The notes beneath the pieces are model-generated. The model made no database searches. It worked only from the letters and a program-made list of their open reading frames with translations, and was not told the DNA's origin. 64,000 nt of DNA, from contig CAVXJS010000021.1 in the NCBI GenBank assembly GCA_963762145.1, positions 1,162,671 through 1,226,670 on the forward strand, in the 5' to 3' direction. This stretch comes from an uncultured Candidatus Rokubacteria bacterium (lineage in GTDB: Bacteria > Methylomirabilota > Methylomirabilia > Rokubacteriales > CSP1-6). The translations under genes were made by a program, and so were the position numbers. Shown in pieces: positions 7,258 to 63,977 of this stretch; position 1 is the stretch's first letter, and every line of letters begins with the position of its first letter.

Positions 7258-7267
7258 ACACCTCCCG

Positions 7268-7666: not shown

Positions 7667-7961
7667 AACTCATACCGCAGAGGATTCGATATGTTGGCGC
7701 GCGGAACACGCCGCCACAGGTGGGTCAGGATCGCGACGCTGCGGCGGGGATGCCCCACACCGACCGCGCCGCCTCAGACGCTGTTGCTGATCGCCAGCGC
7801 CCGTCGGGATTCTTCGGGCCGATCAAGTAAACCTTCACGCTGTCCTCCCGCCGCGGTCCATCGCGGCCGTCACATCATGCCGAAATGCCGCAGCGCCTCT
7901 TCGATTGCTTCTCGCTTCTCGGGCGGGCACGGCTCGACGTCACGATCACGACGGGCCCGGT

Positions 7962-9945: not shown

Positions 9946-9948
9946 GGC

Positions 9949-11574
<1,626 letters not shown>

Positions 11575-11590
11575 GTTTTCTCTCCCTCGC

Positions 11591-11986
11591 CTATTCGGGC
11601 CGGGACCGCTTCGGTCGACGCGCGCCCGCGCCGGCTAGCGCCCGCGCCGCGAAGTACTTCTTGGGGTGCCGCTTGCTGTCGCGGTCTTTCTCGCGGTAGC
11701 GCTCGAGCTGGCGCTCGAGCACGGCGAAGGCCGCGTCGAAGGCGAGCCGGGGAGTCACGTCGCTCCGCTCCACGCGGACGCTCGGGCGGAAGGGCACCCG
11801 GACCGTCAGCGCGCAGCGCATGGCTCGGCCACCCTTTGGGCCGTTGTCGTCGAAGAACGAGGCCTCTCCCTTGACAGGAGCCACCGCCAGCTTCTGCAGG
11901 GCCTCGGTCATGAGTCTGTTGACACGGCTGCTCAGTGGACTCCGCTGCAGTCCAGCGATCCTGATTGCTTTCACGTTGGTCGTCAT
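11591..11986 (-). CDS. HPF/RaiA-like ribosome-associated protein
   Basis: [28 protein letters not shown]. Confidence 0.65.
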
Positions 11987-11999
11987 GTCAGCTATCAGC

Positions 12000-12015
12000 A
12001 GCAACGGCGATGCCA
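12000..12015 (-). promoter_or_regulatory. sigma-54 promoter for hpf-groEL-acuB-HhH operon
   Basis: TGGCATCGCCGTTGCT. Confidence 0.8.
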
Positions 12016-12025
12016 ATCGGTGCGG

Positions 12026-14656: not shown

Positions 14657-14685
14657 CGGCGCGACCCGCTACAATGGGCGCGCCG

Positions 14686-15249
14686 ATGGCGGTTTACCCG
14701 AATGAGCTCGAGCGCGAGGTCACCTTGCCGGACGGATCGCGGCTGCACCTGCGTCCGATCCGCCCCGAGGACCAGAATCGGCTGAGCGCGTTCTATGACG
14801 GCCTGAGCCGTCATACCGCCTACCAGCGCTTCTTCGCGGTGATGAAACGCCTCCCGCCGGACTGGGCACACTTCCTCGCCAACGTGGACTACGACCGCCG
14901 GCTCGCCCTGCTCGCCGAGCACGGCCTCCCGGAGGCCCCCGAGCTGGTCGGGGTAGCCCGCTACGAGCCCACCGACCACGCGGACACCGCCGAAATCGCC
15001 TTCGTGATCCAGGACGGCTGGCAGAATCGCGGCCTCGGCACCCTCATGCTCGACGCGCTGCTCGCCGCGGCCGAGGCGCGCGGGATCCGGCGTTTCCGCG
15101 CGTACGTGCTGGCCGGCAACGCGCGCATGATCGACCTGCTCGTGCGCTTCACGGACATCCAGGAGCGCGTCACGCAGAGCGGCGTCACCGAGCTGCTGCT
15201 GACGCGGCGCCCCGTTCCGGCGCCGCGTCAGGGCGGCAGAACGCCGTAG
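14686..15249 (+). CDS. Stand-alone GNAT (Pat/acyl-CoA synthetase-type acetyltransferase domain)
   Basis: YPNELER..LPDGSRLHLRPIRPED, AEIAFVIQDGWQNRGLGT, NARM. Confidence 0.85.
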   Translation: MAVYPNELEREVTLPDGSRLHLRPIRPEDQNRLSAFYDGLSRHTAYQRFFAVMKRLPPDWAHFLANVDYDRRLALLAEHGLPEAPELVGVARYEPTDHADTAEIAFVIQDGWQNRGLGTLMLDALLAAAEARGIRRFRAYVLAGNARMIDLLVRFTDIQERVTQSGVTELLLTRRPVPAPRQGGRTP

Positions 15250-15293
15250 AGATACCGGGCCAGCCGGGCTCAACAAGCCCCGGCCAGACACCG

Positions 15294-15752
15294 TCATGGG
15301 TACGAGACGATGACCTCCGCGCACTCCGGGACGGTCGTCGCCTCGGGCGTGCCGAGCCGGCGGAGGATGTCGATTTCCGTGAGAATGCCGACCATCCGGC
15401 CATTCTCCATGGCTGGCAGGCACCCCACCCGGTGCTTCCGCATGATGTCCGCGGCCGCGCCGACGGTCGCACCAGCCTCGACCGTCACCACGTCGGTGGA
15501 CATGATCTCCGCGACACGCACCCCGTCGAGGAGGACGTCCACCGGCGTCAAGCTCAGCACCTCGAATACTCGTGGGGTGAACAGGTGGTGACGTAGATCA
15601 CGATCTGTGACGATTCCGACCAGCAGCCCGTCCCGGTTCACCACCGGAAGGTGCCGGACGCGAGCCCGCTGCATGCGCACGACCGCGTCCAGGCACGATT
15701 CCCGCGGCCCTATCGTCACCAGCTCGCGGCTCATCATCTCTTTGACCTGCAT
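15294..15752 (-). CDS. CBS-domain protein
   Basis: RHLPVV..GIVTDRDLR, VGCLP..GILTEIDIL. Confidence 0.88.
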   Translation of the reverse strand: MQVKEMMSRELVTIGPRESCLDAVVRMQRARVRHLPVVNRDGLLVGIVTDRDLRHHLFTPRVFEVLSLTPVDVLLDGVRVAEIMSTDVVTVEAGATVGAAADIMRKHRVGCLPAMENGRMVGILTEIDILRRLGTPEATTVPECAEVIVSYP

Positions 15753-15769
15753 GGCAGCCTCCTGCCGGC

Positions 15770-15862
15770 TCAGCGCCGGGTTCTCCACCAGACGAGCAGC
15801 GCGCCCAGCAGGACGACGACGCCGAGCGCAATGACCCAGGTGTCACGAATTGGCTCGATCAC
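15770..15862 (-). CDS. Unannotated 30-aa single-pass membrane peptide
   Basis: GTG overlaps the upstream TGA; MIEPIRDTWVIALGVVVLLGALLVWWRTRR*; fills the operon gap. Confidence 0.6.
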   Translation of the reverse strand: MIEPIRDTWVIALGVVVLLGALLVWWRTRR

Positions 15863-16239
15863 GGCGCCCGGGTCCCCGCCCCATCGACGATGGAGCGGAT
15901 CGCCGCCAGCAGCACCGAGGCCGCGAAGGGCTTGGCGAGAAACGCGGTGGCACCGGCCGCAAGGGCCGCCCGCCGGGTCTCATCGGACGGATAGCCGGTG
16001 ACCACCAGGACCGGCACCGGATCGCGCGCGGCGCAGGCGGCCCGAACCACGTCGAGGCCGTCGCCGTCCGGCAGCCGGAGATCCGAGATGACGAGATGGG
16101 GTGGCTCGACCGCCAATGCCGCCAGGCCTGCGTCGCGGGACGTGGCCGTGACCACTTCATAACCCTGGCGCCCGAGCAGCCGCTCGTAGGTGGTCAGAAA
16201 ATCGGCCTCATCGTCGACCACCAGCACGCGCCGGCGCAT
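15859..16239 (-). CDS. Single-domain response regulator (receiver)
   Basis: VLVVDDE, ISDLRLPDGDG, VTG, KPF; alternative GTG start at 16248. Confidence 0.9.
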   Translation of the reverse strand: MRRRVLVVDDEADFLTTYERLLGRQGYEVVTATSRDAGLAALAVEPPHLVISDLRLPDGDGLDVVRAACAARDPVPVLVVTGYPSDETRRAALAAGATAFLAKPFAASVLLAAIRSIVDGAGTRAP

Positions 16240-16244
16240 GGGGT

Positions 16245-17354
16245 TCACGTCGGGATCGTCCGGCCGGCCAGATGCCGGATCATCGAGAGCACCCGCTCCG
16301 CGGCGGCGTGCGTGTCGTACACGTCGGTCCGGATGGCCAGATCGGGCCGCGTCGCCTCTTCGTAATCGAGGACGATGTCGGGGTTGGCGGAGGCCGGACC
16401 CGTCGGCTCGAATGTCAGGCCCCAGCGGACGGCGCGCTCCCGCTCGAGGCACACCTCGGTCGGGCACAGGAGCTGGATCTCCGCGAAGCAGGGAATCAGG
16501 GCGCGGGCCGCTTCGCGCCAGACCCGCCGCGGAGCCGTCGCGTCCACGATGACCGACACCCCGGCATCGGTCAGGAGCTTGGCGGTGTAAGCGAGCGCGC
16601 GGTAGACAAGATCCTGCTCGGCCTCGTCCCCCGTCACGGCGCCGAGCAGGACGCGCTGCACCGGGCCCAGCTCCAGCAGGCGGACGCGGGCGCCCCGCTC
16701 GCGCAGCGCGTCGGCCACCCGCGCGGCGAGCGTGCTCTTACCGCTGCCTGGCCGCCCGGTGATCCAGATCGCCCAGCTCGGTTCTCGCTCCGCGGCCCGA
16801 GCGGAGGCGCCGCCGCTGGCACGGACGAGCCGGTCGGCCAGGCGCACGACCTGGGCCACGGACTCTCCGACCGTGTGCACGCTGGTGTCGATCAGGAGTT
16901 CGGGAGCCAGGGCGGATTCGTAGGCCACGTCCACTCCCGGCACGGTCGCGCCGGGGCGTCCGGCTTGCTGGTAGATGTTCCGGGGGGCGTGCCCCGGGGC
17001 CCGCTCTCGCTCGCGCTCCTGGCAGATCGCGAGTGGGCAGACGAGCTGCACCTCCGCGAAGTGTGGCACCGCGTCGCGCACGAGGTCACGCCAGACTCGC
17101 CGGTGGGCGGTCGCGTCGACGAGGACCGGCGTGCCGGTCTCGACGAGGAGCGCGGCCATGTAGCCCAGAGCCCGGTAGACGACCTCGCGCTCGCGATCCG
17201 TGTATCGCGGAGCGGGGGTGATGCTCTCGCGGATCTCATCGAGCTCGAGGCGCACGACCGGCCGCCCGAGCGCGCGAAGCTCCGCCTCCACCCCCCGGGC
17301 GATCGCCGACTTCCCGCTGCCCGGAGGACCCGTGATCCAGATGGCCCAGCTCAT
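16245..17354 (-). CDS. Tandem adenylyl-sulfate-kinase-like P-loop kinase (two domains)
   Basis: WAIWITGPPGSGKS and WAIWITGRPGSGKS; each domain has VxVDATA and FAEV/IQL.CP. Confidence 0.8.
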   Translation of the reverse strand: MSWAIWITGPPGSGKSAIARGVEAELRALGRPVVRLELDEIRESITPAPRYTDREREVVYRALGYMAALLVETGTPVLVDATAHRRVWRDLVRDAVPHFAEVQLVCPLAICQERERERAPGHAPRNIYQQAGRPGATVPGVDVAYESALAPELLIDTSVHTVGESVAQVVRLADRLVRASGGASARAAEREPSWAIWITGRPGSGKSTLAARVADALRERGARVRLLELGPVQRVLLGAVTGDEAEQDLVYRALAYTAKLLTDAGVSVIVDATAPRRVWREAARALIPCFAEIQLLCPTEVCLERERAVRWGLTFEPTGPASANPDIVLDYEEATRPDLAIRTDVYDTHAAAERVLSMIRHLAGRTIPT

Positions 17355-46831: not shown

Positions 46832-48028
46832 GTGTGCGCGGCGCAGGTGTGCGCGCAGATCGGATCGTACACCTGGCCCGCCTTGCTTCCGGTCTTCATG
46901 AGCGAGTGGCACCTCACGAACCGAGAGGCCGGCTGGATCACCGGGGTGCTGTACGCCGCCTATGCCGTGTCCGTGCCGATCCTGGTCACCCTGACGGATC
47001 GGGTCGACGCGCGCCGCGTCTACCTGTCGGGCGTGGCGCTCACGGTCGCGAGCCATCTGGGATTCGCAGTCTTTGCGGAGGGGTTCTGGAGCGCCCTGGC
47101 GATGCGGGCGCTGGCCGGCGTAGGCTGGGCGGGCACCTACATGACCGGCTTGAAGCTGCTGGCCGACCGGGTCGATCCGGTGCTGATGTCACGCGCGGTC
47201 GCCGGTCACGCCGCGAGCATCGGGATCGCCGGCTCGCTCTCGTTCGTGTTTGCCGGCGCCCTGAGCCACTGGTACGGCTGGCGTGAAGCCTTCCTGGGAG
47301 GCGCGCTGGTGACGCTGGTGGCCTGGCTCCTGGTCTTCTGGTGGGTGCCCGCTCGAGAGCGCCACGCCCATCCCGCGCCTTCCGGCGCGCTGTTCGACTT
47401 CCGACCCGTATTCCGAAACCGCTCCGCCATGGCCTACGCGCTGGGCTACTGGGCCCACACATGGGAGATGAACGCGCTGCGCGGCTGGGTCGTCGCCTTC
47501 CTCACGTACGTGGCCGCGACAACCGGGGAGACGCCCTGGCTTGCCCCAACCACCGTGGCGATGCTGATGGGTCTCGTCGGAACGTGGGTGAGTGTGGCGG
47601 GCAACGAGGCATCGATCCGCCTTGGCCGACAGCGGTTGGTGCACCTGGCCATGACCGGCTCCGCGCTCTGCGGTGCCGTGATCGGCTTCCTGGGCCCGCG
47701 ATCGTATCTGCTCGCCGCTCTCCTGGTGCTCGTCTACGGGTTGCTGATCTGGCTAGATTCCTCGTCTCTCACTGCCGGGGCGGCCGGGAGCGCCGATCCC
47801 AAGCGTCGCGGGGCGACCCTGGCGATCCATTCGATGTCCGGGTATGTCGGCGGGTTCATCGGCCCGATCGTGATCGGCTGGATCCTGGACCTCTCGGGAG
47901 GCATGTCGGTCCGGGGCTGGGGGCTTGCCTTCCTGCACGTTGCCATCATCATGGGAGTCGGCCAGGTCGCCTTTCGCCTCCTGGCGCCCCGCGACCTGGC
48001 CGGTGACCGGAGCCCGAGCCGGCGCTGA
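46832..48028 (+). CDS. MFS transporter (same subfamily as 44612-45889; may start at CTG 46805)
   Basis: DRVDARR, HTWEMNALRGW, LDSSSLTAG. Confidence 0.88.
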   Translation: MCAAQVCAQIGSYTWPALLPVFMSEWHLTNREAGWITGVLYAAYAVSVPILVTLTDRVDARRVYLSGVALTVASHLGFAVFAEGFWSALAMRALAGVGWAGTYMTGLKLLADRVDPVLMSRAVAGHAASIGIAGSLSFVFAGALSHWYGWREAFLGGALVTLVAWLLVFWWVPARERHAHPAPSGALFDFRPVFRNRSAMAYALGYWAHTWEMNALRGWVVAFLTYVAATTGETPWLAPTTVAMLMGLVGTWVSVAGNEASIRLGRQRLVHLAMTGSALCGAVIGFLGPRSYLLAALLVLVYGLLIWLDSSSLTAGAAGSADPKRRGATLAIHSMSGYVGGFIGPIVIGWILDLSGGMSVRGWGLAFLHVAIIMGVGQVAFRLLAPRDLAGDRSPSRR

Positions 48029-48204
48029 GTTACGAGAACGCTTCAATTCCCCTGTTTGCGAATCAGTTGCTACCACTGGCACGGCCACCCGCTTATACCA
48101 GCCGCACGCGTGCTATAAGCCAAGTTCCAGCTAAGTTGAGGAGCGGGGTAGGGCGCTGCCCCACATGCCGGGCGGGCAAACTAGTCGAAATAAACCGAAT
48201 CAAA

Positions 48205-48249
48205 TGGTGGGCTGGGACGGGATTGAACCGCCGACACCAGGATTTTCAG
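48205..48249 (-). tRNA. 3' half of tRNA-Phe(GAA): att-site duplication, not a full tRNA
   Basis: Minus strand CTGAAAATCCTGGTGTCGGCGGTTCAATCCCGTCCCAGCCCACCA; similarity stops at the anticodon loop. Confidence 0.85.
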
Positions 48250-48506: not shown

Positions 48507-48571
48507 GCCGAACGGCGCGCGAACCGGCGCGCGGCGCCGTTTCGCGCGTCTGGTTCAGCGCAGAGTTAGGT
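48507..48571 (-). repeat. attC site 4
   Basis: ACCTAAC-TCTGC-GCTGAACC...GGTTCGC-GCGCC-GTTCGGC. Confidence 0.75.
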
Positions 48572-48639
48572 GGCGACGAATTCGATTGAAGGGAGTGACC
48601 GCATTCCGGCAAAGCCGTGAGCGATCTGTAACGGCTCGA

Positions 48640-49623
48640 TCACTGGATCACCTCGTCCGCACGCTGTAGCAGCGATTGCGGAATAGCAATACCGAGTGCC
48701 TTTGCGGTCTTGAGGTTGATGACCAGCTCAAACTTCGTTGGTTGCTCCACCGGAATATCGGCGGGTTTTGCGCCCTTAAGAATCTTGTCTACGAAGCTAG
48801 CTGCGCTGCGCCAATGCCATGCGTTGGATGAAAGATAGGACATCAAGCCGCCAGCAGCGACGTACTCACGGCCGCCGAAGCTGGATGGCACCTCGAATCG
48901 AAGCGTCAGCCCGATGATGTGGATACGGTGTGAAAAAAAAATCGGGTCGGGCACGACTACGAGCGCCCCGCCTTTGGCGCGCGCAATGGCTTCGTTCAGT
49001 TCGCCTTCTACCGCGACGTCGATACGGTCAAGGCGAAGGCCCAGTGTCTTCGCGCGCAACGACATCGCGTCAAAGAAGAATCCGTTGGCAGGATTGGCGC
49101 CGTTCATCAGCACGCTGATCCTCTTGAGTTGCGGCACGGCAGCCGACAGCAATTCCACTTGTTTGGAAAGAACCTCTTCGCCCGCCGCCGAAGTGCCAGT
49201 GAGGTCGCCGCCCGGCCGGGCCAGGCTGGCGACGAATTTCGCCCCCATAGGGTCCCCGGCGTTGATCATGACAACAGGCAGTCTAGGAGCACCATCACGC
49301 GTCGCGCGGATCGCAGCCGTGCCGACCGCAAGGATCAGCGCCACCGGAAGCGCCTTGAGTTCGGCGGCGAGTTCGCGCTGGCGCCGCGGATTCACGCCCG
49401 CCCAACGAATCTCGATTGCGAGGTTCTTTCCTTCGACCCAGCCCAGGTCGCGCAAACCCATGCGCAGTTCTTTCAGGTCGATCCGCCCCCCGGGTGTGGG
49501 TTCGGTATACGGAGCAAGCAATCCAATCCTGAAAACCTTGCCTGTCGGCTGTGCGCGAATCGGAGCTGCCTCGATCAGGCATGATCCGGCGACGAAGGTA
49601 ACGAATGTCCGCCGGTCGATCAC
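48640..49623 (-). CDS. ABC transporter substrate-binding protein (ABC_sub_bind), cassette 4
   Basis: DRRTF signal, VASLARPGGDLTG, VDKILKGAKPADIPVEQPTKFELVINLKTAKALG. Confidence 0.92.
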   Translation of the reverse strand: MIDRRTFVTFVAGSCLIEAAPIRAQPTGKVFRIGLLAPYTEPTPGGRIDLKELRMGLRDLGWVEGKNLAIEIRWAGVNPRRQRELAAELKALPVALILAVGTAAIRATRDGAPRLPVVMINAGDPMGAKFVASLARPGGDLTGTSAAGEEVLSKQVELLSAAVPQLKRISVLMNGANPANGFFFDAMSLRAKTLGLRLDRIDVAVEGELNEAIARAKGGALVVVPDPIFFSHRIHIIGLTLRFEVPSSFGGREYVAAGGLMSYLSSNAWHWRSAASFVDKILKGAKPADIPVEQPTKFELVINLKTAKALGIAIPQSLLQRADEVIQ

Positions 49624-49735
49624 TGAAACACCTCGTCGACTAGAGGAAGCCCAGCTATCGTACGCCTACAGCGGGAATTGAGCGCCACCAACGAGAACCT
49701 GCCCTGGGCGGAATTCCGACGCCCGATGGGTTGCC

Positions 49736-49793
49736 GCCCAACGGTCCGTATCAGCCGCGGCCGAAGGCCGTCGGCTGGATACGGTAGTTCGGG
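49736..49793 (-). repeat. attC site 3
   Basis: CCCGAAC-TACCG-TATCCAGC-CGACGGCCTTCGGCCGCG-GCTGATAC-GGACC-GTTGGGC, with extrahelical bases. Confidence 0.8.
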
Positions 49794-49825
49794 TTCGCGC
49801 CGGCTCGGCCATGGAATGCCAGCCC

Positions 49826-50800
49826 CTATTCGATGACATGATCCGCCCGTAGCAACAATGGCCGCGGGATCGTAAGGCTCAGCGTTTTGGCGGTCTTCAA
49901 GTTGAAGACGAGTTGGAAATGTGTGGGCTGCTCCACGGGTAAATCGCCGGGTGCGGCGCCTTTGAGGATCTTGTCGACGTAGATGGCCGCACGCTTTGGC
50001 AGATCGCTGAACTCCGACGCATAGGCGACCAGCCCGCCCGCTTCCGCGAAACGCCGGAGGCCGGACACTGCAGGTAACCGGTGTTTTAGCGTGAGTCGCA
50101 CGAGCGTCGATCGGACCTCCGGATCGACCGTGAAGATGGGCTGGACGACAATGCCTCCAACCCGATCTCGCGCGATCGAGCCGAGCGCGGTCTCGAGTTC
50201 TCCAATGCTTCCCAGGATGACGGGCCGACATTGGAGGCCGAGTCGCCGGGCCGACGATTCGGCCTCGCCGAGAAACTCGCGATGTAGCGGATCGTCGCTG
50301 TGCACCACGCACGCGAACCGCGTGGCGCGAGGCAAGGCTTCGTGGAGTAGTTCGACGGTCTTGCCGGCCAATTCGATCAACGCCAGCGACAGGCCCGTGA
50401 CGTTGCCCCCTGGCCGTGCCAAGTTGGTGACGAGCCCTGTCCGGAGCGCGTCACCGGCCGCGGCCATAATGATCGGAATGTGGCGCGTCGCCTCCATGGC
50501 CGCCTGAACGCTCGGCGTAGCAGAGGCGACGATGAGGTCCATGTTCGCGCGGACTAGTGCTTCGGCCAGCATGGGGAGACGATTGGTCTGGCCGTCTGCC
50601 CAGCGGTGCTCGATGACGACGTTGCGCCCTTCGACGTAGCCGAGGTCGACAAGGGCTCGCCGGAACCCCTCCCGGAACGGTTCCGGGGCGCCAAAGGACA
50701 GTACACCGATGCGGGCGACTTTGTCCGCTTGCTGCGCCGCGAGGACGACTGGTGCGACAAGAACGGTCAGGGTGCCGGCGAGAAAGACCCGACGCTCCAT
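49826..50800 (-). CDS. ABC transporter substrate-binding protein (ABC_sub_bind), cassette 3
   Basis: MERRVFL, NLARPGGNVTG, VDKILKGAAPGDLPVEQPT. Confidence 0.92.
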   Translation of the reverse strand: MERRVFLAGTLTVLVAPVVLAAQQADKVARIGVLSFGAPEPFREGFRRALVDLGYVEGRNVVIEHRWADGQTNRLPMLAEALVRANMDLIVASATPSVQAAMEATRHIPIIMAAAGDALRTGLVTNLARPGGNVTGLSLALIELAGKTVELLHEALPRATRFACVVHSDDPLHREFLGEAESSARRLGLQCRPVILGSIGELETALGSIARDRVGGIVVQPIFTVDPEVRSTLVRLTLKHRLPAVSGLRRFAEAGGLVAYASEFSDLPKRAAIYVDKILKGAAPGDLPVEQPTHFQLVFNLKTAKTLSLTIPRPLLLRADHVIE

Positions 50801-50872
50801 CACCCACCTGGGCTGAGTCGTTCGACCGTTATCACTGCGCACTGTGCCAGTCGTGCTGCCGGTGCCCGCGAA

Positions 50873-50930
50873 GCCTAACGCTTGAGCTCAGCCGCGCGCG
50901 GAGGCCGCAGGCTGCAGCGATGGGTTGGGC
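50873..50930 (-). repeat. attC site 2
   Basis: GCCCAAC-CCATC-GCTGCAGC...GCTGAGCT-CAAGC-GTTAGGC. Confidence 0.85.
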
Positions 50931-50976
50931 CGCGCTCGTTGGGACCAAAGCATTGCCGTTGGCAAAGCAGCCTGAC

Positions 50977-51408
50977 CTATTTCCTGATTACAGATTCTGC
51001 CGGGCGCGGCGTCGTAATTGGATCAGCGTGGCGATGAACGAGCCTCCACTCGCCTTGCTCGCTCCGAAACACGCTCGTGACGCGGGCAGCTATGGGTACC
51101 AATTCCGCGCCGCCACCGACCTTTGCTCTTCCGCGCTCTACCTCGACGACACATGCTAAATCGGCACTAGCGTAGATCGCGATTAGATCTGCCGCAGTCA
51201 CCTGCCCGTCGCGGTAGTGCGACGCCGCACCATCAAGTGTTGCCTCGACCTTCTTCCGGCCGTGCGCATACGGTCCGAAGGGATTGCCTAGCGTGATGTC
51301 CTCGCGCTGAGAGAACAAAGCCTTGTACCCACTGGAGTCTCCTTTGAGGATCAACGCTAGCGCCTCGTGACTTCGCTCGATTGCGCGTTCAAGGTCGGTC
51401 GTTGCCAT
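50977..51408 (-). CDS. NTF2/SnoaL-like protein, cassette 2
   Basis: LGNPFG, RVTSVFR..GEWRLVHRHADP. Confidence 0.85.
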   Translation of the reverse strand: MATTDLERAIERSHEALALILKGDSSGYKALFSQREDITLGNPFGPYAHGRKKVEATLDGAASHYRDGQVTAADLIAIYASADLACVVEVERGRAKVGGGAELVPIAARVTSVFRSEQGEWRLVHRHADPITTPRPAESVIRK

Positions 51409-51483
51409 ATGCCCTTCTCCGTTTGCTTGATTGCGCGGTCTTCGCGGGCGCATCTCGATGCCCGGGCGGCGTGTGAGCGCGCG

Positions 51484-51554
51484 GCCCAACGCCACGTTGA
51501 CCGGCCGTGGCGAGCGAATGCGAGCCAGCGGTCCGTTCGAACGTGAAGTTGGGC
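51484..51554 (-). repeat. attC site 1
   Basis: GCCCAAC-TTCAC-GTTCGAAC...GGTCAAC-GTGGC-GTTGGGC. Confidence 0.82.
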
Positions 51555-51592
51555 GTCACGCCGCGGGCAGGCAGTTCCGAGGAATCCCTCGA

Positions 51593-52012
51593 TCACTTGC
51601 GATCCACTCCGTGCGCAACCTGACGTTGGTACTCCACAGCATCGAAGTTGCCGAGCGATTCGGCGCCCAAGCCACCACTACCAATCCGCCACTCTTCGGA
51701 TCCGCTGATACGAACCCGCTTGCCAGTACCACCAGGTCCGCTGTTGGTGCCTTCTAAGGTCCACTTGTAGATCACCTTGCCCCGTTGCTCGAGCAGATCA
51801 TCCATATATACCTTGAGATCAGGAAAGGCACTCATGAACCCCTGCGCAGCTTCGGTGATCGCGCTTCGTCCCACCGACGGGGTGCCTCCATTGATGGTCA
51901 GCGAGCCGCCTGGAGCAAAGAACGCAGCAACGCTGGCCGCATCCTGGCTGCACCAGGCAGCCGTATATCGGGTGGCAAACTCACGGAGCTCAGTCATTCT
52001 GTCTTGTGCCAT
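51593..52012 (-). CDS. SnoaL-like ester cyclase family protein, cassette 1
   Basis: RYTAAW, FMSAFPDL, WTLEGTNSGPGGTGKRVRISG. Confidence 0.85.
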   Translation of the reverse strand: MAQDRMTELREFATRYTAAWCSQDAASVAAFFAPGGSLTINGGTPSVGRSAITEAAQGFMSAFPDLKVYMDDLLEQRGKVIYKWTLEGTNSGPGGTGKRVRISGSEEWRIGSGGLGAESLGNFDAVEYQRQVAHGVDRK

Positions 52013-52063
52013 GGGCTCCTCCGGTGGATGGGTGCGTATCCGCGGAATCACTGTATTCGTGAC

Positions 52064-52095
52064 GTCCAACTAGAATTATCTAGACCTGGATAACG
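52064..52095 (-). other. Putative attI site
   Basis: Minus strand GTTATCCAGGTCTAGATAATTCTA-GTTGGAC: a GTTRRRY core at the head of the array with no attC partner. Confidence 0.55.
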
Positions 52096-53067
52096 GCGTA
52101 CACTGCAGTCCCGGTCAGGCTAATCCGCCCGAGCGACCGGTTCATCCTGAGCAGAAAGCCTTCGCTGATCCGCCTTTGCCCCATCGTCCTGTCTTGGCCC
52201 CGCAGTGTTACACAGACCCGCGTAATCCGGTAGATCAGGGCAACGGGCCTGCTCCTCTTACGCGCCGCGCCGAGTCTGCGCGGCGCCAGTGGATCCTGAC
52301 CTGCAGGAAAAGGGCGATGAATCCCTTGGATCCGGGGACGGGTATCGGGGGGCTGGAGCCGTCCAGACCGATGCCGCCGCCACGGATTCCGTGACGGCCC
52401 GCGAGCTGCGCATCGGGAACCGTGCGGTGGGGCAATCCGCCGGACGATTCCGCCTGCGTCAGCCGCAGGCCCTCAGAGAACTCGGCCTTAACCTTAAGGC
52501 TGGCGCCTCCGTTCCCCGAGCCACGGCCTCGGTGTCCAGGTCCGCCAGTTCGCAAGCGTCGTCCAAGATCAATCCGTGAATAGTGCTTCCGGGCCGCGCC
52601 GAGGACTTCCAATCCCGAGCGCGCGGATCCGAAGACGTTGCCTCAAGTCAGTTCGCGAATAACATCGTGGGGTGATCCCCGCTACTCGTGGAGTGCACTT
52701 TCAGGTTGTTGCCAGGGCCCGCAAGCACTTGCAGGCAAACAGGTCACTCGCATTCCGGTTCGATGTCATGCTCTGAAGCTCGCGCGGAGGGCTTTATCTG
52801 CGCTGTGTCTCCGGCGGGGCGGCTGGCGTCTGAGTCTCGCATTATGTCACGGGGACGGGGCCCACGGACGGGGCGACCGCGCCGCCGGAGGGGGCCAATG
52901 CTGCCTACGCTCGGCCCCGCTGCTCGCCCTCACGCACAGTGGGCCCGCTCGCCACCTTGCTCGTATCCATGTGCAGGGTCGCGTGGCGGCCCTCCAGGTT
53001 CCGGTGCCTTCCCGCCGCCACGCTGTCCCTTGCCGGACGTTTCGTCGACGAGGCTGAAGGTCCGCTG

Positions 53068-55958: not shown

Positions 55959-56332
55959 GGCGGTTCCTCTCTCTGGGACGGCCCGCAGATCTCGCGGCGC
56001 CGCTGGCGATTATTTTCTCGTTCGGAGCGGAGGGCAAGAGTGCCCGTTCAGGCGCCCCCTCTTTAGCAGGGGCGCGGAAGTGCGACAATCGGACCAAAGG
56101 CCTAGTGCCGTTGCACGAGAGGAGGTTCGCGCAGCGAAGCTCCATCCACTCCATCGTGTGCTCCGATGGCGATTCTCCGGGTCCGGGGTTCCCTGCCCTT
56201 CCATTCATCCCCAAGCTTCGCTCAGGAGCCTCCCGAGCGCCAGGGCAAGCGCCTCGCTAAACAGACTGCGGTAGACTGGCGCACGCGGGATCCGACGAGG
56301 TGGGGTACCAAGCGTTGGATGGGGGTGCGGCG

Positions 56333-59300
56333 ATGAACCATGGTCCAACTGTACGCCGCGGTAGGCATGCACTTGCAATCGGACTCCTCGGCATTGTGTC
56401 CGTCTTGGGATCACCTCCTGACGCATTCGCCCAGCTTCCGACGGGCCCCGACGGGGTCACTGGCACGTACGGTGAGACGAGCAGTCGTGGGATCGTCGAC
56501 GAGAGCAACGGCGCGATGACATATTCGATTCCACTCGACCTCCCTGCGGCGCGAGGCAATGTACAGCCCGTGCTCGCTCTCCACTATCGATCGAACAGTG
56601 GCACCGGGGATGCGGGCGAAGATTGGTGGCTCGGCCTACCGTCGATCGAACGTGCTCCTCTCTCGAACTGGCCGAAGTACGTCGACAACGGCAACGAGGC
56701 TCTCGAGGACCGTTACACGTACTCCGGCCGGGTGCTGGCGTACGTCTGCACGGTAGGGGTCCTGCCCGGCTGTCCCGCCGAGGCCGGCCCCATGCCGGCA
56801 TGGGCGCACGGTCACCGGCACTATCGTCTGCGCGTCGATCGGGGAGTCGAACGTTTCTTCCTCAGTCCCTCGCGCCAGCGATGGCTGGTGCAATACCGCG
56901 GCGGCCAGATCATGGAGTTCGGAGAACCACTGACGCAGGCGTCTGTCGCCGGCGCCGCCGTGGATCGCGAGCCGACGGCCGGCAACAAGGTCTTTCGTTG
57001 GAATTTGGCCCGGCACTACGACCTTCACGGCATAGAGACGGCGGCGAGCAGCGGCACGCTCGGTCTTGCGACGAACGTCGTCGTCTACAAGTGGTCGCAG
57101 TCGACCACTGCGCGTAATGTCCTCACGGATATCTTCTACACACCTCCCGCTGCGAATCCGACCACCGCAACGCTGAGCGAGTACGCCTACCACGTCGCGC
57201 TGGACTGGGAGCAATCCGTGACTCCGATGCATCCCGTTCCCTTCGCGCGCATAGACAAGCAGCGTCCGTGGCAGCGGCTGAGGCGCGTCGCGATCGCGGC
57301 GGCACCTTGGAGTCGGCCCGGCCCACGCGAGATCCTCCGTCAGTATCACTTCACCTACTACCACCCTCGATTCGGGAGTGCCGGTGGCGCTCCAACCTTG
57401 GTATCGGAGTTTTCTCCATCAAGTGGAGATCGAAGGGCGCTGCGGCGGAGTAGAGTCCGACAACGCCATTCCCGCGACGACGTGCCCGCGACTACCTGAG
57501 CAGATCTTCGAGTACGAGACGGCGCACATCGCGATCGGCACCGTCATCGCGACGGACATCAGCGGAAGCCCGGCCGGCGGGCTTCCCTACCCGGGCAACA
57601 CCGCCATCGTTGACATCGATCGGGACGGCCGACCGGACATCGTCCAAGGCTGGCCGCAGAACCGCCAAATCCACGCGAGCCCCGCATCTTCGGCGGCGGC
57701 TTGGTACAACGCGTGCAAGCCGACTGATACGAGCAGCGGGATGGTGGGTGTCTGGGTCCACGTCGCGGAGAACGGGCCTGGACAGCCCCGTGTCCTCTTG
57801 TGCCCCTACAGTGACGCTCCGCAGATCATGGGTCCCGCCCGGCGCCAAGACGCGTACGTCAACCGCGGTGTACAAGCAAACGGCACCCTGACGCTCCAGC
57901 ACAACTGCCTGGATGCGGATGCGCTCGCGGCAGTACAAGCGCCTCCTTCGCCTCCGACCTTCGTTGGCGGAAGCGCGGTTGCGCTGTTCTCCCAGTACGG
58001 CTCGCAGGTGCTCGGCCCGTGGGGAGATGCCGTCCTGCTCTGGAGCAAGGCCAGCAAGCGCGGCTTCGCCATCGACCCGACGAGCGCAGACAGTGCGTTC
58101 TGTCCAGGCGCGGCTTCCAATGCACTGTATCCATCGCTCAAGTGGCGACAAACCGAGGATTCGTGGTGGGCCAAGAGTCCACCCGTGGTGTCGCTGCAGG
58201 GAGGGGCCTACGCCGATATCGATGGGGATGGATATGTCGATCGTCTCGGCACCGCCAGCGGGACGAGTGGCCCATTCGGCAAGGCCGGGATCGCCTTCAC
58301 GCGGCGGCTATCGGAATTCGAAACTGCTGAGTCTCATCAAGGGCCGGCGTTGGTTCCGTTTGTCAGCAACCTCAGTGCGATCCCGGCGGGCTATGAGGAT
58401 GCGGCCCTGGGCCCCCCCAACGAATCCTGGTACGCCGACGTCAATGGGGATGGCCTCGCCGATCTGGTCTCGGTTGCGCCCAATCCCCAGGCGCTGATCC
58501 AGACTCGTCTCGACATTCGGCCCGGCAACGGTCGCGGTCGCTTCGGATGCACGCCCGCGGAGGGCTGTCTCGTCGCCGCGGGCAGCGAACCGGTCTCGTG
58601 GCTGGGAAATGCATACACCGCCTCGACCGATGTCCCACTTCCCGCTCGGCTACAAGCGTGGGGGTACCCACTGTACGCCGACCCGATTGGTCCCCACCCA
58701 ACCCTGTTCATCCACGACGTGACGGGCGACGGGCTCGCCGACCTCGTCGTCATCCACTTTGCCCTCGGACCCAACGGAGCACAGACGCCGCGTGTGCGCC
58801 TCTGGGTGAACATCGACGGGCATCGCTTCATGTGCGCGAACCCCGCGGACGACTGCACCGTCGGAACGTTCTCGGGAACCGCACCGGCACCCAACAACGC
58901 TTCTCCCCTTGCGCTCAACGTCACGTTCGTGGACGTGGATGCGAATGGCGTCGATGATCTGCTGATCCTCGGGGAGACCACGATCTGGCACTTCTCGTTT
59001 CTGACCGTTCCCTCCACTCCGATTTCGGGCGGCCGTCGCGCGCCTCGTCCCGGCCTCCTCACCCACGTGCGCAATGGCGCCGGTGCCGACACGGACATCG
59101 TCTACCAGACGGTCCAGGAGCTCGATGTCGAAGCCTCCACGTACCTCCCGCACAACTTCGACAACTTCCTACGGCCCTGGACGACGCACGTCCCCGTGGT
59201 CCTGCCGGTGGTGACGAGAGTCACCGTTCGTGACACCCCGACCGCTTCGGGATCGCCGCTCCAGCAGCCATTCCGCTTCGATCGCGAGACCCGCTTCACC

Positions 59301-62300
59301 TACCGCGATCCGGCCTACGATCTCTGGACGCGGTCGTTCAAAGGATTCGCGCGCGTGCGCGTGGCGCGCGAGACCGGCGAGACCGTACAGACGTGGCGCT
59401 GGTTCACCGCATGCGAACGCGGCCGGGTGGAGGACAGCCAACCGCAACGACCCGTGTGCCCCGAGACGAGCGACAGAGCCGGCGACGCGGCATTCGTCGG
59501 CCTGCCGGTTCGAGTCGACCGCTTCTTCCCGGGAAGCGGTCCCGAGCGGCCCACGCAGTGGCTCTCGACCAAGACGTTCCGGTACGCCATCACGCCCGAT
59601 CCTCTGATCAACTCCACTCAGGTCTGGCGACGTGCGGACCTCGACCGGGTCGACGAGTACCTGTACGACACGGCGGCCGAGATCTCGCGTGCCGACACGA
59701 TCAGTGCGCCGAATACGACCCAGAGGGCGCCGGAGCAACCGGCCGGCCGCGTTCGCCTCGTGACGTCGATGAGCTACAACACCGAGGGGAGCCGAACCGG
59801 CACGGTCCGCTGTGGGCGGACGGACGCCGCCGGGGACTGTGGAAGTCTGATCGACCCGGAGATCACGGAGGCCGTCCTGCCCACGTTCGCGGGTGCCACG
59901 TGGTGTAGGGGCGACTGGCGCTGCCAGCCGACCGGCATGGAGGTGCGTGAGAGACGAAGGAACGACGCCGGGGACATCGCAACGATGCTTCTTCGGCAGC
60001 AGCGCTTCGAGTACGGCCCCGACCCGAGCGGAACCGACTTCAACGGTGATCTGGTCAATCTGTACAGCCGGCTTCTGTACCCGGGAATCCCGGGACTGCC
60101 GAATCATACCCCCCGCGATTTGAGCCACGGCGTAGGTGTCCCGCCGAGTGCTTCTACGCTGGTTGGCGAGCGGCGGGTGATGAGCATCGTCCGCGACGCA
60201 TTCGGCACGCCCACGCAGGTTCTCGGCGCGCCGGGTTCGCAGCAGCCGTGCGTGGCCTACGTGCTCGATCCGACCTTCGCCCAGTTCAGCGCCAGCGTGA
60301 TCGCATACGTGGGAGCGAGCTGCACCGGTCCGACCCTCGAGCACCAGCTCATCTTCGACCGCGGGCTGGGACAGGTGACCGCGATCGTCGATCAGCAGAG
60401 GAGGACGCTGGAGACCCTCGAGTACGACGCCTTCGGTCGATTCCACAAGCGATTCGTTCCCCACGCAGAGGTGCCGTATGCGACCCTGCTCGCCCTGCAG
60501 ATCGACCACTTCCTCCAGAGTCCCACCCCCTACCTCGTCATCAAGCAACGGCTCTACGAGCCGGATGCCGATCCGGGCACTCTCGCCTCGATCGAGATCT
60601 TCAACGGCATGGGTGAGCATGTCCTCGGCTTCGACACCGCCGACAGCTTCGCCTACGGCGCGCCGTGGATCCTGCGCGACTGGACCGAGAGAGACGCCAG
60701 CGGCGCCGTCACGGCAATAAGCCGTCCGGTCCTGTTCTTCGGAGATCCATACTCCGTCGCCGCCACCGCTCCGCCACTCACCCCTCACGGTACGCGAATG
60801 ACGGCGGTTCGTGATGTCTTCGGACGGCCCCGAACCATCGCCGACGCCTCGACGATCGTCGCCGACTATCGCTACTTGCCGCTCCAGGTTGAGATCCGCG
60901 ATGCGGAACAGGCAAAGTCGAGCGGGCCCTACTCCGGCAACTTCTCGCGCTCGACCATCGACGGACATGGCCGGCCGATCCAGAGCCAACGCCAGGAAGG
61001 ATCCAGGGCCGTCATCACGACGGTGGACTTCCTGGGAACTGGTGAGCCCCGAAGGGTCTGCAGGCACTCACCCCTCACCGGTCCGCCTCCGGCACTACCC
61101 GCTCCGCTCTGCGACGCTCCCGGCGCGTATGTTCGGAAGTTGCAGTGGGACTCGTTCGGACGACTCGTACAGAACGATGAACCAAACACGTCGCGCTTCT
61201 CGGGATCGGACAGAGTGGGCTGGGGCTACGCGTATGACGATTCGGGGCGCCTGGTCGCGACCACCGATGCGCGCGGATGCGGCAAGAACATCTACTACGA
61301 TGCGCTGGGGCGCGTGCTCGCCGCGGACTTCTCTCCGTGCGACGCAAGCCAGCCCGCGTACACGCCACCGGACCTCACGACTGGCGACGGAACCGAGGCG
61401 TTCTACCGTTACGACCGCTACGAGCCCACTGACGACTTCGCCGGTCGCGCCGAGTCGGCCGCGAGGAACCTCGTGTCGGTTCAGGATCGAGGCTCTCACA
61501 CGCGTTTCAACTATGACGCACGCGGTCGCCTGCAGCGCGTCGCGCGACGCCTCGTGAAGCCGGGGACCCCCGCCGCGACCCTCACGGACCGCTACACGAC
61601 GAGCTGGTTCGGCGAGATGCTGACGTACGATGACTCGGATCGCCTGAGACGGCGCACCACGACCCTTCACACGCCGGAACTCCTCGTGAATGGCGAGAGC
61701 GCGGAGACGTTCGACTACGTCGGCTTTCTGATCAGCAGCGTGGGATCGAGCTACGGAACGCTCGCTTCGACGTTCCGCTATCTTCCCAACCACGCATTGA
61801 GCGCGATGACGTACGGCGACGCGGCATCGACGCGCGCCACCTTCGACTACGACGCTCGTGATCGACTATCGCGATACCACCTGTTTCGGCACGCTGCGCC
61901 AGGAGTGTGGTCCACTTCTACATCGCTCTACCCCTTGCCGGGGCCCGAGACGACACAACTCGACCTCAGTCTGAACTCCTTCACGTACGACGACGTTGGG
62001 AACCCGATCTCGATCACGGACGAGAGCACCTCCACCTGGCCGACCGGGGCCCGCCCAGTGTCCCGCCTGATGCAGCACGACGCGGCGTATCGAGTGATGA
62101 GCGTCCAGAGCGTCCATGGCGGGGACGGTCACGTCCCGGCCTACCTCGCCGAGGCTCTGGCGGGGGATCGCCGGCCCGTCGCCGTCCGGCAAGGCGGTCA
62201 GCGGCCGAGCCTTCAGACGTTCGAGTACGACTGGCAGGGCAACACGACCTTCACCGACGACGATGAGGGGCTTCGCTACGACCGATCGCTCGGCCGGGTC

Positions 62301-63977
62301 ACCAATGGCGGGCCGAGCGCGGGGCCGAATCAGCTGGTCGACGCGGCCGGCGTTCATGCCGACTACGATGTCGCAGGGAATCTGATCGAGCTCACCGTCG
62401 CACGCACAAGCTGTTGGGACCAGATGCCGAACTGCAGTCACCGCTTCCGCTACGAGTGGAACGAAGTCGGCCAGCTCGTTCGCGCCCGCCGTTGGGATTA
62501 TGGGGGCGGACCCGTTCCTCCGCCTCTCCCAAGTGAAGTCCCGACGTGGGATCTGGCCTACGGGTACAGCTCCGGTCAGCGCGTGCTCAAGACGGTAACC
62601 GACGCGCTCGGCACCGCGAAGCACACGCTCGATGCTTCCGGGACGCAGCGCATCTCTCGAGCCGACTACGATCCCGCCAGTTCGGACTACCGAGTACAGG
62701 GAGGGAACGAGATCCGTTTCGTCGCGGGGCTGGGGCGCGTCTTCCATGATCCGACTCGTCTCATGCCGGTCGCGCGCGGGGACGGCATGCCGATCCACGT
62801 GTTCCTCACGCTCGGCGATCATCTCGGCTCGACCGCGTTCACGATCGACAAGGACTCGGGCGAGGTCGTGGAGCGGTCCATGCATCAGCCGTTTGGTGCG
62901 ATCGAGAGTGATCTGCGCCCGCTCCGCTGGGCGGCGTCCCGTGAGGACTTCAAGTTCACGGGCAAAGAGGACGACATCGAGGTCGGGCTGACCTATTTCG
63001 GGGCGCGCTACTATCAGGCGCAGCTCGGGAGGTGGGCGAGCGCCGACCCGTTCTCGATTCACGCGCTCGGTGGAGACATCAACCCGTATGCATACGTGAG
63101 CGGGCGCGCACTGAGTGACGTGGATCCGTTGGGCCTATGCGCACCTTGCCCGGCCGGCGACGAGTACGGCCCGGACGTATTCGTCCGCGCGCCCCCGCGG
63201 CGTCGCGAACCCACACACGATTGGGCACCGGAGAGGAAGCGAGTGCCGCTCGGTCCGCAGACACCTATTCAGCAAATGATGTGGCAGCAGCTGGCGCGTT
63301 TTCTCGGGCGGAACGGAGACATCGAACGCGGCGTTCGAGACCAGGCGCTCGACAGCGTTGCCAGCTCATTTGGCCCCATCACCGGTCCCGTGGTGAGAGA
63401 AGTGCTGCCGCGCGCCTCGAGCGGCTCGCCTTCGCTCGCCTACTACGTCGGTCGTGTGCCGGTCCTCGGGATGGAGCTCTACGCCGGGGCTGCCGTGGGG
63501 GCGCTCGGGACCCTGAGCAAATCCAATGCGATCATCACCCCCCTCGCCGAGGGCACGTTGTCCGGTATTCGGCCGAGTCAGGCTCTAATAACGGAGATCG
63601 GCGTCTGCGGCCGGTCCAACTGCTTCAACCGCGCGATCGCCCTCGAACGTCGCCTTGCCGGTTCTCCGACCTCGGCGATTGGTGGTGAGGAGGTCAGGCT
63701 AAGCGCAGCCTACGCCTACCTCCGGGAGGTCTACCCGTCCGGTACGACGGCCGAGTTCATGTCACGCGCCCCGATGGAAGACATTTTCTTGGTCCTGGGT
63801 GAAGGAACGCGCGGCGTCGTGTTTGGTCTCCGAGCAGCGGAAACGGGTCACGCGTTCAATGCGATGGTGTCGAACGGACGGGTGGTCTTCATGGATGCGG
63901 GGCTGGTTGGGCGCGCCAGCCTTGGCGGCTACTCCAGCTTCGGCGTGTTCTTCACGCAACTCGGCGGTGGTTTTTGA
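56333..63977 (+). CDS. SpvB/FG-GAP/RHS (TcB-TcC-like) polymorphic toxin with papain-fold C-terminal toxin; frameshift near 57380
   Basis: Signal-like N-terminus; GAMTYSIPLDLP..QPVLALHYRS (SpvB); DxDGDG repeats; YD repeats; FTGKE..YFGARYY..DPLGL; toxin motifs NCFN, GHAFN, VFMD. Confidence 0.88.

Follow-up and report, generated by a model that had tools for sequence, protein, structure and literature searches.

A probable four-cassette integron array, headed by attI and lacking its integrase, with PF04392 binding-protein genes in a Rokubacteriales genome

The window, i.e., the whole 64-kb stretch of DNA that was analyzed, came from a soil Rokubacteria/Methylomirabilota genome of the order Rokubacteriales (assembly 6.26 Mb, 88% complete). 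It contained four attC sites (lying within 3.05 kb) and four cassettes, all on the minus strand, and these were headed by an attI core. The array had a G+C content of 0.59-0.66 against ~0.70 for the genome, and about half of its length was taken up by two 1.1-1.2 kb cassettes encoding exported binding proteins. The features were as follows (R2 is a covariance model described below):

48203..48249, minus: tRNA-Phe 3' fragment, 47 nt, its first 45 nt being the 3' end of tRNA-Phe; outside the array
48507..48571, minus: attC A, 65 nt, ending cassette 4; R2 40.1 bits, E 1.4e-7
48640..49623, minus: cassette 4 gene, encoding SBP1 (PF04392, 327 aa); cassette ~48513-49741, 1229 bp
49736..49793, minus: attC B, 58 nt, ending cassette 3; R2 62.3 bits, E 4.1e-13
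49826..50800, minus: cassette 3 gene, encoding SBP2 (PF04392, 324 aa from ATG); cassette ~49742-50878, 1137 bp
50873..50930, minus: attC C, 58 nt, ending cassette 2; R2 36.8 bits, E 9.3e-7
50977..51408, minus: cassette 2 gene, SnoaL_3/DUF4440; cassette ~50879-51489, 611 bp
51484..51554, minus: attC D, 71 nt, ending cassette 1; R2 51.3 bits, E 2.3e-10
51593..52012, minus: cassette 1 gene, SnoaL polyketide-cyclase-like; cassette ~51490-52069, 580 bp
52064..52080, minus: attI core GATAATTCTAGTTGGAC, with GTT crossover triplet at 52070-52068
52081..52235, minus: intI-attI spacer remnant, with conserved motif GGTCTGTGTAACACTG at 52203-52218

All four cassette genes were full length. SBP1 (125.1 bits, profile positions 20-293) and SBP2 (153.5 bits, profile positions 8-292) both spanned almost the full PF04392 profile with scores above its gathering cut-off (25.9 bits), shared 41% identity with each other, and carried RR-type signal peptides: a twin-arginine-like signal (DRRTFV) at the N-terminus of SBP1 and MERRVFLAG in SBP2. 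The solved chains nearest to SBP1 were 3lft, 3lkv, and 6hni, and the nearest homologue of SBP2, from a betaproteobacterial MAG, displayed 74.6% identity (dN/dS 0.15). The idea that SBP2 homologues elsewhere were themselves cassettes was unsupported, since its closest homologues in other genomes had no attC beside the gene; one attC-like site lay 2.1 kb upstream at the betaproteobacterial MAG locus. The cassette 2 product matched PF13474 (35.8 bits) and PF14534 (32.5 bits), and its start was set by eye at ATG 51408 because an extended frame starting at GTG would run into attC D; the cassette 1 product matched PF07366 (55.3 bits) and PF12680 (50.2 bits), with GGAGGAG preceding its ATG at 52012. 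No permease or ATPase gene lay beside SBP1 or SBP2, the neighbors being attC sites and SnoaL cassettes, and the PF02653 match nearest to the array was >220 kb distant. The binding-protein genes of the array are supported as true cassettes. A scan near attI found no consensus sigma-70 promoter or terminator.

An attC site is an imperfect palindrome of ~57-141 nt with an R'' box ending in AAC and an R' box beginning with GTT; the four window sites were all of this form, and each gave one long imperfect hairpin when folded as single-stranded DNA. attC A had R'' ACCTAAC at 48571-48565 and R' GTTCGGC at 48513-48507, fitting the consensus pairing, and its R'' box was less certain because the site has an alternative fold whose outer stem is shorter (48507-48559). 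The fold z-score of attC D was -3.38 (top strand), and the fold energy of attC C was no better than that of shuffles (z -0.95 and +0.66). AAC and GTT were invariant or nearly so across nine sites of this genome and 42 sites of relatives. Two sets of pairing values were obtained: (i) across this genome's nine sites, a 24-pair structure had 81.0% of its cells paired versus 29-38% with partners slid, 11 of the 17 L-helix pairs had compensatory changes, and the inner stems varied in sequence with pairing kept, and (ii) in the 42 relatives' sites, 91.2% of cells paired versus 29-37% with partners slid, and 14 of 17 L pairs were compensatory in an alignment that was fitted to the model. The 5' (R''-L'') arm of the consensus attC carried two single-base bulges and its 3' arm was bulge-free, and bulged extra bases were located on the gene-proximal R''-L'' arm in the folds of attC B, C, and D, so that the extra L'' base claimed initially was borne out, less clearly at attC A. 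One or more unpaired extra bases on the L'' side are said, from the work of Stokes in 1997 and Bouvier in 2009, to set attC strand polarity.

Two covariance models were applied: R1, built from the nine own sites, and R2, built from 42 intI-adjacent attC sites at 18 loci, all in other genomes. R2 picked out exactly these four sites in the window, each lying on the minus (cassette) strand, with scores of 36.8-62.3 bits (E 4e-13 to 9e-7), a test that was not fully independent because the R2 training sites had been found via R1, from sites first picked here; at E<=0.05, one further window match appeared, an 18.5-bit plus-strand echo of attC D. An nhmmer profile of the nine own sites returned, genome-wide, only those nine at E<0.001, and the own-genome attC sites were confined to two clusters of one contig; the genome-wide covariance-model search scored 150 of 19,557 first-look candidates and was backed by nhmmer and by filter-free targeted searches. 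Scans for AAC...GTT hairpins were used solely for locating the second array: the strict scan missed attC A and B, and the loose scan gave 74 matches genome-wide, mostly GAAC...GTTC inside genes. A MAFFT/RNAalifold consensus of the first four sites was meaningless because of misaligned loops, and it was replaced by a hand-written structure and a nine-site alignment. Rfam, with no usable attC model, gave no match in the window at gathering scores.

The core pattern GATAATTCTAGTTGGAC occurred only twice in 6.26 Mb, once at the window attI and once at that of the second array, and the window attI aligned with those of relatives G013, G020, and G023, all of which had intact intI; judged from this homology, the window's minus-strand GTTGGAC core (52064-52070) is genuinely attI. 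The adjoining spacer stretch aligned with sequence that, in relatives, follows the intI stop codon and precedes attI, and the spacer motif GGTCTGTGTAACACTG had three occurrences in the genome. With attI and part of the spacer kept, the window array clearly represents the head of what was once a complete integron, not a stray cluster. An attI was thus present at the array head, and no intI lay beside attI and the cassettes: no intI-like coding remnant was found beyond the window spacer, no TIGR02249 match was found near 1.21 Mb of the contig (C21), and tblastn with a sister IntI gave nothing credible in the window (the best match, E 0.61, being elsewhere). No intI in the whole assembly passed the TIGR02249 cut-off of 265 (best 82.7 bits). 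The initial annotation had described four attC sites of 58-71 bp, each following one minus-strand gene, a lone GTTGGAC attI-like core heading the array, no intI beside it, and a cargo of two SnoaL/NTF2 and two divergent ABC_sub_bind proteins, and the site positions and lengths (58-71 nt), the attI alignment, the integrase searches, and the Pfam matches all agreed with this description.

The second array, on the same contig at a distance of 580 kb, had six to seven attC sites. Its flanks were syntenic with the intact integrons of G013 and G020 (82-92% identity), and its intI was internally deleted, residues 10-26 being joined to 295-328, with 94% identity to G013 IntI; this deleted copy (C21:632.4-632.56 kb) was the only intI trace in the genome. 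The second array held PF04392 cassettes, two of which were decayed (one frameshifted and one truncated), and its cassette content and order differed from those of the syntenic G013 array. The window array was located at a synteny break that 11 same-genus loci lacked.

The comparison was also applied to the integrons of relatives. TIGR02249 was passed in 31 of the 101 genomes searched, and an intI match at E<=1e-30 was found in 12 of 20 same-genus genomes. R1 gave 17 sites in one search and 36 in another; at 18 of the 24 intI loci examined it had matches, all of them 3' of intI and on its strand, and the deleted intI of the second array had the same layout. The window element is an integron of the type found in its lineage (Rokubacteriales, Methylomirabilota). 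In Treponema-type chromosomal integrons (the 'inverted integrase group'), intI is transcribed toward attI, according to PMC3607928 and PMC3575428; the relatives' integrons were alike in layout, attC lying 3' of intI on the same strand at 18/18 loci with attC, but their hosts were Rokubacteriales instead of spirochaetes, and the comparison is one of layout. A co-directional integron type is hereby documented in Rokubacteriales; a literature search on integrons of this order returned no paper, and the supplementary tables of the Cury 2016 and IntegronFinder 2.0 surveys may list the phylum.

Beyond the window, attC-associated PF04392 genes were present in the second own array, so that both own arrays harbored them, and in four of the 18 arrays linked to intI in relatives, which together represented two families of the order: (i) cassettes between attC sites in G057 and G042, (ii) a gene after attC, at a contig end, in G071, and (iii) a fragment before attC plus a full copy inside the array in G013, the full-length gene having no recognised attC on its 3' side. 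About five of 53 attC-defined cassettes in relatives were PF04392, compared to an estimated <1% of genes there (11-38 matches per genome). No PF04392 cargo was found at 80 intI loci (962 kb) of other lineages, loci that were often short and were searched with a profile made from own paralogs. PF04392 cassettes are a recurrent cargo special to the Rokubacteriales lineage; from this recurrence and the 0/80 elsewhere, the cassette cargo is tied to the expanded gene family of the host. Apart from those of clinical integrons, most cassettes code for small proteins whose role is unknown. The element here is of a known kind with a new cargo, exported PF04392 binding proteins, and these cassettes make a concrete case for studying cassette origins.

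The window locus is very probably a genuine four-cassette array, the attI end of an integron without its integrase, carrying promoterless minus-strand cassettes; it is classed as a CALIN since intI is absent from the assembly. In the available part of Cury et al. [quoted passage not shown] A CALIN call takes two or more attC sites, clustered within 4 kb on a single strand, and no integrase nearby, as at the window. Relative to the CALINs of that paper, the window array was alike in its four sites (near the average), in the lack of resistance cargo, and in having a second integron-related element in the same replicon, but it differed in that its attI was still recognisable and some of the intI-attI spacer survived; the window likewise had no intI pseudogene, while the second array of the same genome had its deleted intI.

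Each cassette would have been inserted at attI, IntI recombining its folded single-stranded attC with attI, and from this rule the SnoaL cassette adjoining attI would be the newest arrival and SBP1 the oldest. Expression of the cassettes would probably depend on read-through from the attI side. Given that no integrase was found in the assembly, the array would now be frozen unless IntI is supplied in trans. The genome appears to be caught after integrase loss, with one array having a deleted intI and the other having attI only.

The Vibrio superintegron and other sedentary chromosomal integrons were a further comparison type. They have >19 attC sites by the definition quoted in Cury et al. 2016 (PMC4889954), and the window array differed from them in having four sites, in its location at a synteny break, and in giving about half of its length to two cassettes that encode exported binding proteins. 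It was alike in that attC was fairly homogeneous within the lineage and the cargo was mostly small proteins of unclear role, and the second array was alike in its conserved chromosomal locus with cassette content variable between sister genomes.

Among the alternatives, it is rather unlikely that the array is still active, its cassettes being excised and reordered by an intact integrase whose gene lies in the 12% of the genome that is missing from the assembly, is plasmid-borne, or belongs to co-resident strains. An unassembled intI is conceivable given that the genome is only 88% complete; moreover, intI is common in the genus (12/20), the four genes and attI are intact, and CALINs may be served in trans (Cury et al. 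2016, PMC4889954). Against this activity, no intI was found in 6.26 Mb (TIGR02249), the syntenic integron locus of the genus has a deleted intI here, two binding-protein cassettes of the second array have decayed, and, as a weak argument, the contigs of four soil runs contained no attC-to-attC joint. The same contigs gave no circles or order variants, rare forms being beyond what contigs can show. Skips of 1201-1292 nt in these contigs were rejected as attC excisions: they joined conserved C-terminal regions of both binding-protein genes with sides <30 nt, as cross-matches of other paralogs, and a 402-nt skip ran from 49987 to 50390 inside SBP2. The initial annotation had the array mobilised and shuffled by integron recombination; a cassette array with attI stands, but present-day shuffling is unsupported here since the genome has no assembled integrase, and an array frozen after integrase loss is the preferred reading.

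Orphan extracytoplasmic solute receptors of the Bug/TctC family are known to have expanded without transporters. The PF04392 family, for which many orphan copies had been correctly predicted, resembled it in being large here (74 matches, 48 of them long) and mostly without an adjacent permease (PF02653 within 5 kb of three of the 48 long copies, none for the other 45), but it is another protein family, and a few of its members here are attC-bounded cassettes. No attC was found within 450 nt downstream of 39 other long paralogs (best 13.6 bits), and no convincing attC was found in the tandem cluster holding six further long copies, leaving 45 of the 48 without attC. Many copies were in tandem runs, which suggested local duplication; one such run (contig C14, 42.7-51.5 kb) contained six long matches and one fragment. 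In a quick tree, the six PF04392 cassette copies were scattered and unclustered, needing 6 changes compared to 5.8 for shuffled labels, and none had a close chromosomal twin. A search of 80 family genomes with the array DNA (three candidates scored per genome) recovered nothing beyond the conserved ~170 nt at the 3' ends of PF04392 genes, a result that is silent on cassette sharing. The PF04392 cassettes were most likely recruited from the large paralog pool of the host, not the source of that pool.

A two-way traffic is unlikely: Rokubacteriales integrons would act as an exchange platform for transporter-less exported PF04392 proteins, drawn from and returned to the paralog pool, with attC decaying after fixation. 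If so, strains would vary in the ligands captured or sensed, and the family expansion would be fed over the long term. It is also quite improbable that, as the initial annotation proposed, integron recombination spread and multiplied the orphan proteins into a shuffled sensing or scavenging repertoire. The recurrence of PF04392 cassettes in both own arrays and 4/18 relatives' arrays of two families, their excess over the genomic share, the 45/48 long paralogs without a nearby permease, and the differing content and order of the syntenic own and G013 arrays would fit such spread; it is opposed by the 45/48 long paralogs without attC (only nine known sites genome-wide), the tandem runs, the unclustered cassette copies without close twins, and the missing intI. 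The window array therefore leaves the orphan binding-protein expansion unexplained by integrons, and recruitment from the pool is preferred. Finally, although a 70% G+C genome folds into many hairpins (74 AAC...GTT in the loose scan) and attC C folded no better than shuffles, it is extremely improbable that the palindromes are ordinary extragenic hairpins (REP elements or terminators) with chance AAC/GTT ends, given their confinement to two clusters of one contig, their strand-polar match to a model of intI-linked sites from 18 loci elsewhere, inner stems that diverge in sequence and keep pairing, and an array start homologous to attI.

Outside the array, 258 nt past the last attC, the stretch 48203..48249 matched, at 100% identity, the 3' portion of the tRNA-Phe(GAA) located at contig C22:1374-1449. 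A tRNA-Phe directly after the MFS gene in relatives was considered and rejected (0/11 loci), and ARAGORN found no whole tRNA in the 64-kb window. By its sequence, this tRNA-Phe fragment is likely the att scar of an integrative island.

The window harbored four minus-strand genes within 48507-52080, each followed by one imperfect palindrome that, read on the gene strand, started with RYYYAAC and ended with GTTRRRY:

48507-48571, minus strand, attC site A (palindrome after gene)
49736-49793, minus strand, attC site B (palindrome after gene)
50873-50930, minus strand, attC site C (palindrome after gene)
51484-51554, minus strand, attC site D (palindrome after gene)

By Pfam matches, these genes encoded two PF04392 (ABC_sub_bind) binding proteins (125.1 and 153.5 bits; SBP1 in cassette 4 and SBP2 in cassette 3) plus two SnoaL-type proteins, in agreement with the cargo listed in the initial annotation. 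Folded as single-stranded DNA, sites A to D each formed a single long hairpin, and B, C, and D displayed extra unpaired bases on the gene-proximal arm, matching the extra L'' base reported in that annotation. Extra bases on one arm are expected of attC sites, and B, C, and D showed this polarity, a feature reportedly described by Stokes in 1997 and Bouvier in 2009. The fold energy of site C was no better than that of shuffles; at 70% G+C of this genome, fold energy by itself was weak evidence.

The first whole-genome hairpin scan identified a second hairpin cluster on the same contig (C21:622-632 kb), and the four window sites plus five from this cluster composed a nine-site alignment, in which a 24-pair structure had 81.0% of cells paired (vs 29-38% with partners slid) and 11 of 17 inner-stem pairs displayed both-sided changes. 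These nine sites served to build covariance model R1, which was searched in DNA beside integron integrases of relatives and gave 17 sites at E<=0.01 in one search and 36 at E<=0.001 in another. All of them lay 3' of intI and on its strand. Of 24 intI loci examined, 18 had matches; the six others were mostly cut by contig ends. A second model, R2, was trained on 42 relatives' sites only, with no window or own-genome sites; its training set had 91.2% of cells paired, but the alignment was fitted to the model. R2 was run with filters off on the window, the second locus, and the left flank of the latter: the window contained exactly four sites, namely A to D on the minus strand (B 62.3, D 51.3, A 40.1, and C 36.8 bits), and no further match at E<=0.05 in 64 kb except an 18.5-bit plus-strand echo of D. 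Genome-wide, only the nine known sites were recovered, both by a model search that scored 150 of 19,557 candidates and by an nhmmer profile. The identity of A to D as attC sites, one behind each gene as initially annotated, was thus strongly supported, the test being not fully independent because the R2 training sites had been gathered with R1.

The GTTGGAC initially taken as a lone attI-like core belonged to GATAATTCTAGTTGGAC (52080-52064, minus strand), and a conserved spacer motif GGTCTGTGTAACACTG was located at 52218-52203, within about 150 nt beyond this core. The core and these about 150 nt aligned with the stretch from the intI stop to the first cassette in three relatives (G013, G020, and G023) and in the second array of this genome, bearing out the attI assignment. 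The 6.26-Mb genome contained two copies of the core pattern and three of the spacer motif. As first noted, there was no intI beside attI: tblastn with sister IntI gave nothing credible there. The search for intI in trans was also negative in this assembly, which had no integron integrase above the TIGR02249 cut-off (best match 82.7 bits, Xer-like; cut-off 265). The window locus is a CALIN, an attC cluster lacking integron-integrase, by the definition of Cury et al. 2016 (PMC4889954), with attI still retained. The third spacer copy, including GGTCTGTGTAACACTG, was found at C9:216060-216230 (about 5060-5230 of extracted locus L194, minus strand) between PNPOx-like and GNAT-like frames (both read by eye), with neither attI core nor attC match; it may represent a scar left by a further integron since lost, or else an independent small element.

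The second array was longer and occupied the minus strand of C21:622.8-632.2 kb (element 622800-632560; 6800-16560 of extracted locus L009). It contained six R2 sites and another R1 match at 13722-13781 of L009, also found by R2; its cargo (ABM, GNAT, glyoxalase, SnoaL_3, PNPOx, and two damaged PF04392 genes, one frameshifted and the other a C-terminal fragment) was typical of cassettes. Its intI had residues 10-26 joined directly to 295-328, with 94% identity to G013 IntI. On both flanks, synteny with G013 and G020, whose integrons are intact, was found at 82-92% identity; the cassette content differed, and two common cassettes (glyoxalase and SnoaL_3) were in swapped order. Integron integrases were common in the group: of 101 genomes searched, 31 passed the TIGR02249 cut-off, and a match at E<=1e-30 was present in 12 of 20 genomes of the same genus (this tally takes in unpublished G029 and G043, on neither of which a locus-level claim was built). 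The relatives' attC sites, lying 3' of intI on the same strand, resembled the Treponema integrons, from which an atypical layout with intI transcribed toward attI is known (PMC3607928). The literature search on integrons of the Rokubacteriales lineage gave incidental co-mentions only. GroEL of the window shared 89-97% identity with GroEL of MAGs mostly labelled Candidatus Rokubacteria or Methylomirabilota, a few top matches being labelled otherwise. The window array is a real, well-formed integron remnant of known kind in a little-studied phylum.

SBP1 and SBP2 were divergent (41% identity), full length against the Pfam profile, and had twin-arginine-like signal peptides at the N-terminus (DRRTFV and MERRVFLAG, respectively). 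SBP2 showed 74.6% identity to a betaproteobacterial MAG homologue with dN/dS of 0.15, and therefore had been under past purifying selection. The solved relatives of SBP1 were uncharacterised structural-genomics entries and one sugar-family receptor. The attC association of such genes extended beyond this genome, with PF04392 cargo in 4 of 18 intI-linked arrays of relatives from two families of the order, making up roughly 5 of 53 attC-defined cassettes: (i) a gene between two attC matches in G057 and G042, (ii) a gene after attC at a contig end in G071, and (iii) a fragment before attC plus a full-length copy inside the array without recognised 3' attC in G013. PF04392 was absent from 80 intI loci of other lineages, searched with our own profile (962 kb, many loci short). 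The literature searched held nothing relevant on binding proteins as integron cassettes, and this recurrent cargo type is apparently undescribed there.

The closest SBP2 homologue (about 75%) lay in a cassette-like string of short same-strand frames in L029 (800-6600; betaproteobacterial MAG), which had a sole attC-like match (818-892, 36.4 bits) and none between genes; this string may represent an array that has decayed, or be unrelated. The last about 170 nt of the PF04392 genes (48636-48810 and 49826-49994) displayed 70-83% DNA conservation in many of the family's paralogs and genomes, unusually strong for paralogs so divergent, and in soil-run contigs the depth over these 3' ends spiked to more than a thousand.

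It had been proposed that integron recombination could explain the many orphan PF04392 copies. Their abundance was confirmed: this genome had 74 PF04392 matches, 48 of them long, with a PF02653 permease within 5 kb of 3 long copies and within 10 kb of 7. The explanation itself was not supported, since only 3 of 48 long copies and one fragment were attC-linked, leaving 45 long copies without attC. With filters off, R2 gave no attC in the 450 nt following each of 39 other long copies (best 13.6 bits), and none of weight in a 13-kb tandem cluster holding six further long copies (best 18.6 bits). A quick maximum-likelihood tree (55 sequences) showed the family as a deep star; in it, the six cassette copies needed six changes (vs 5.8 for shuffled labels), did not cluster, and lacked close chromosomal twins. 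At C14:42770-51532, seven PF04392 matches (six long and one fragment) stood in tandem on a single strand, with neither attC nor permease nearby; such arrangements suggest local duplication. The lineage-specific cargo would agree better with host genes having been recruited into cassettes than with the reverse direction.

Insertion of folded bottom-strand attC at attI is the established integron mechanism, and the cassettes would accordingly have been inserted singly at attI by the lineage's IntI. Transcription would enter the array from the attI side; upon loss of intI, the array would have become a fixed operon-like string, which only an integrase acting in trans could mobilise again. The binding proteins are putatively exported; they would either act with partners whose genes lie elsewhere or scavenge on their own.

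The window stretch was present in soil metagenome runs of several studies. Contigs of three of the four soil runs examined, each from another study, covered array parts without differences, and one contig spanned the attI-to-cassette-1 junction (51960-52296); the contigs of these four runs contained no attC-to-attC joint, circle, or order variant. The alignment skips listed for these contigs were cross-matches at conserved ends of genes.

In comparison with 11 loci of the same genus, homology broke exactly at the stop codon of an MFS transporter gene (48010-48033). The downstream DNA of these loci mapped elsewhere in this genome (6 of 11 to C11:579-582 kb, 81-89% identity), indicating that the break stems from a rearrangement or an insertion; the array therefore lies on the border of a genome-specific segment. 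A 47-nt stretch at 48203-48249, 258 nt beyond the last attC, had its first 45 nt matching the 3' end of tRNA-Phe and showed 100% identity to the intact tRNA-Phe (C22:1374-1449), itself near the contig start with lower-G+C DNA on its 3' side. The contig ended at the window end, and the segment may be an island in tRNA-Phe spanning the contig gap. A tRNA-Phe after the MFS gene was found in 0 of the 11 relatives' loci. Further tRNA-Phe 3'-end copies were located at C21:1112226-1112278 (50 kb upstream of the window) and C14:45299-45347 (in the C14 tandem cluster, 90 nt past the end of a binding-protein gene), and a coding fragment resembling an SBP C-terminus (read by eye) lay about 1.2 kb from the intact C22 tRNA-Phe; integration at tRNA-Phe may have occurred repeatedly near PF04392 genes. 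The same genome-specific segment harbored a Tc-toxin/RHS-like locus at 56300-63977, composed of a SpvB-domain frame (399 aa) and a 2199-aa frame with TcdB_toxin_midN, FG-GAP, and RHS repeats running to the contig end.
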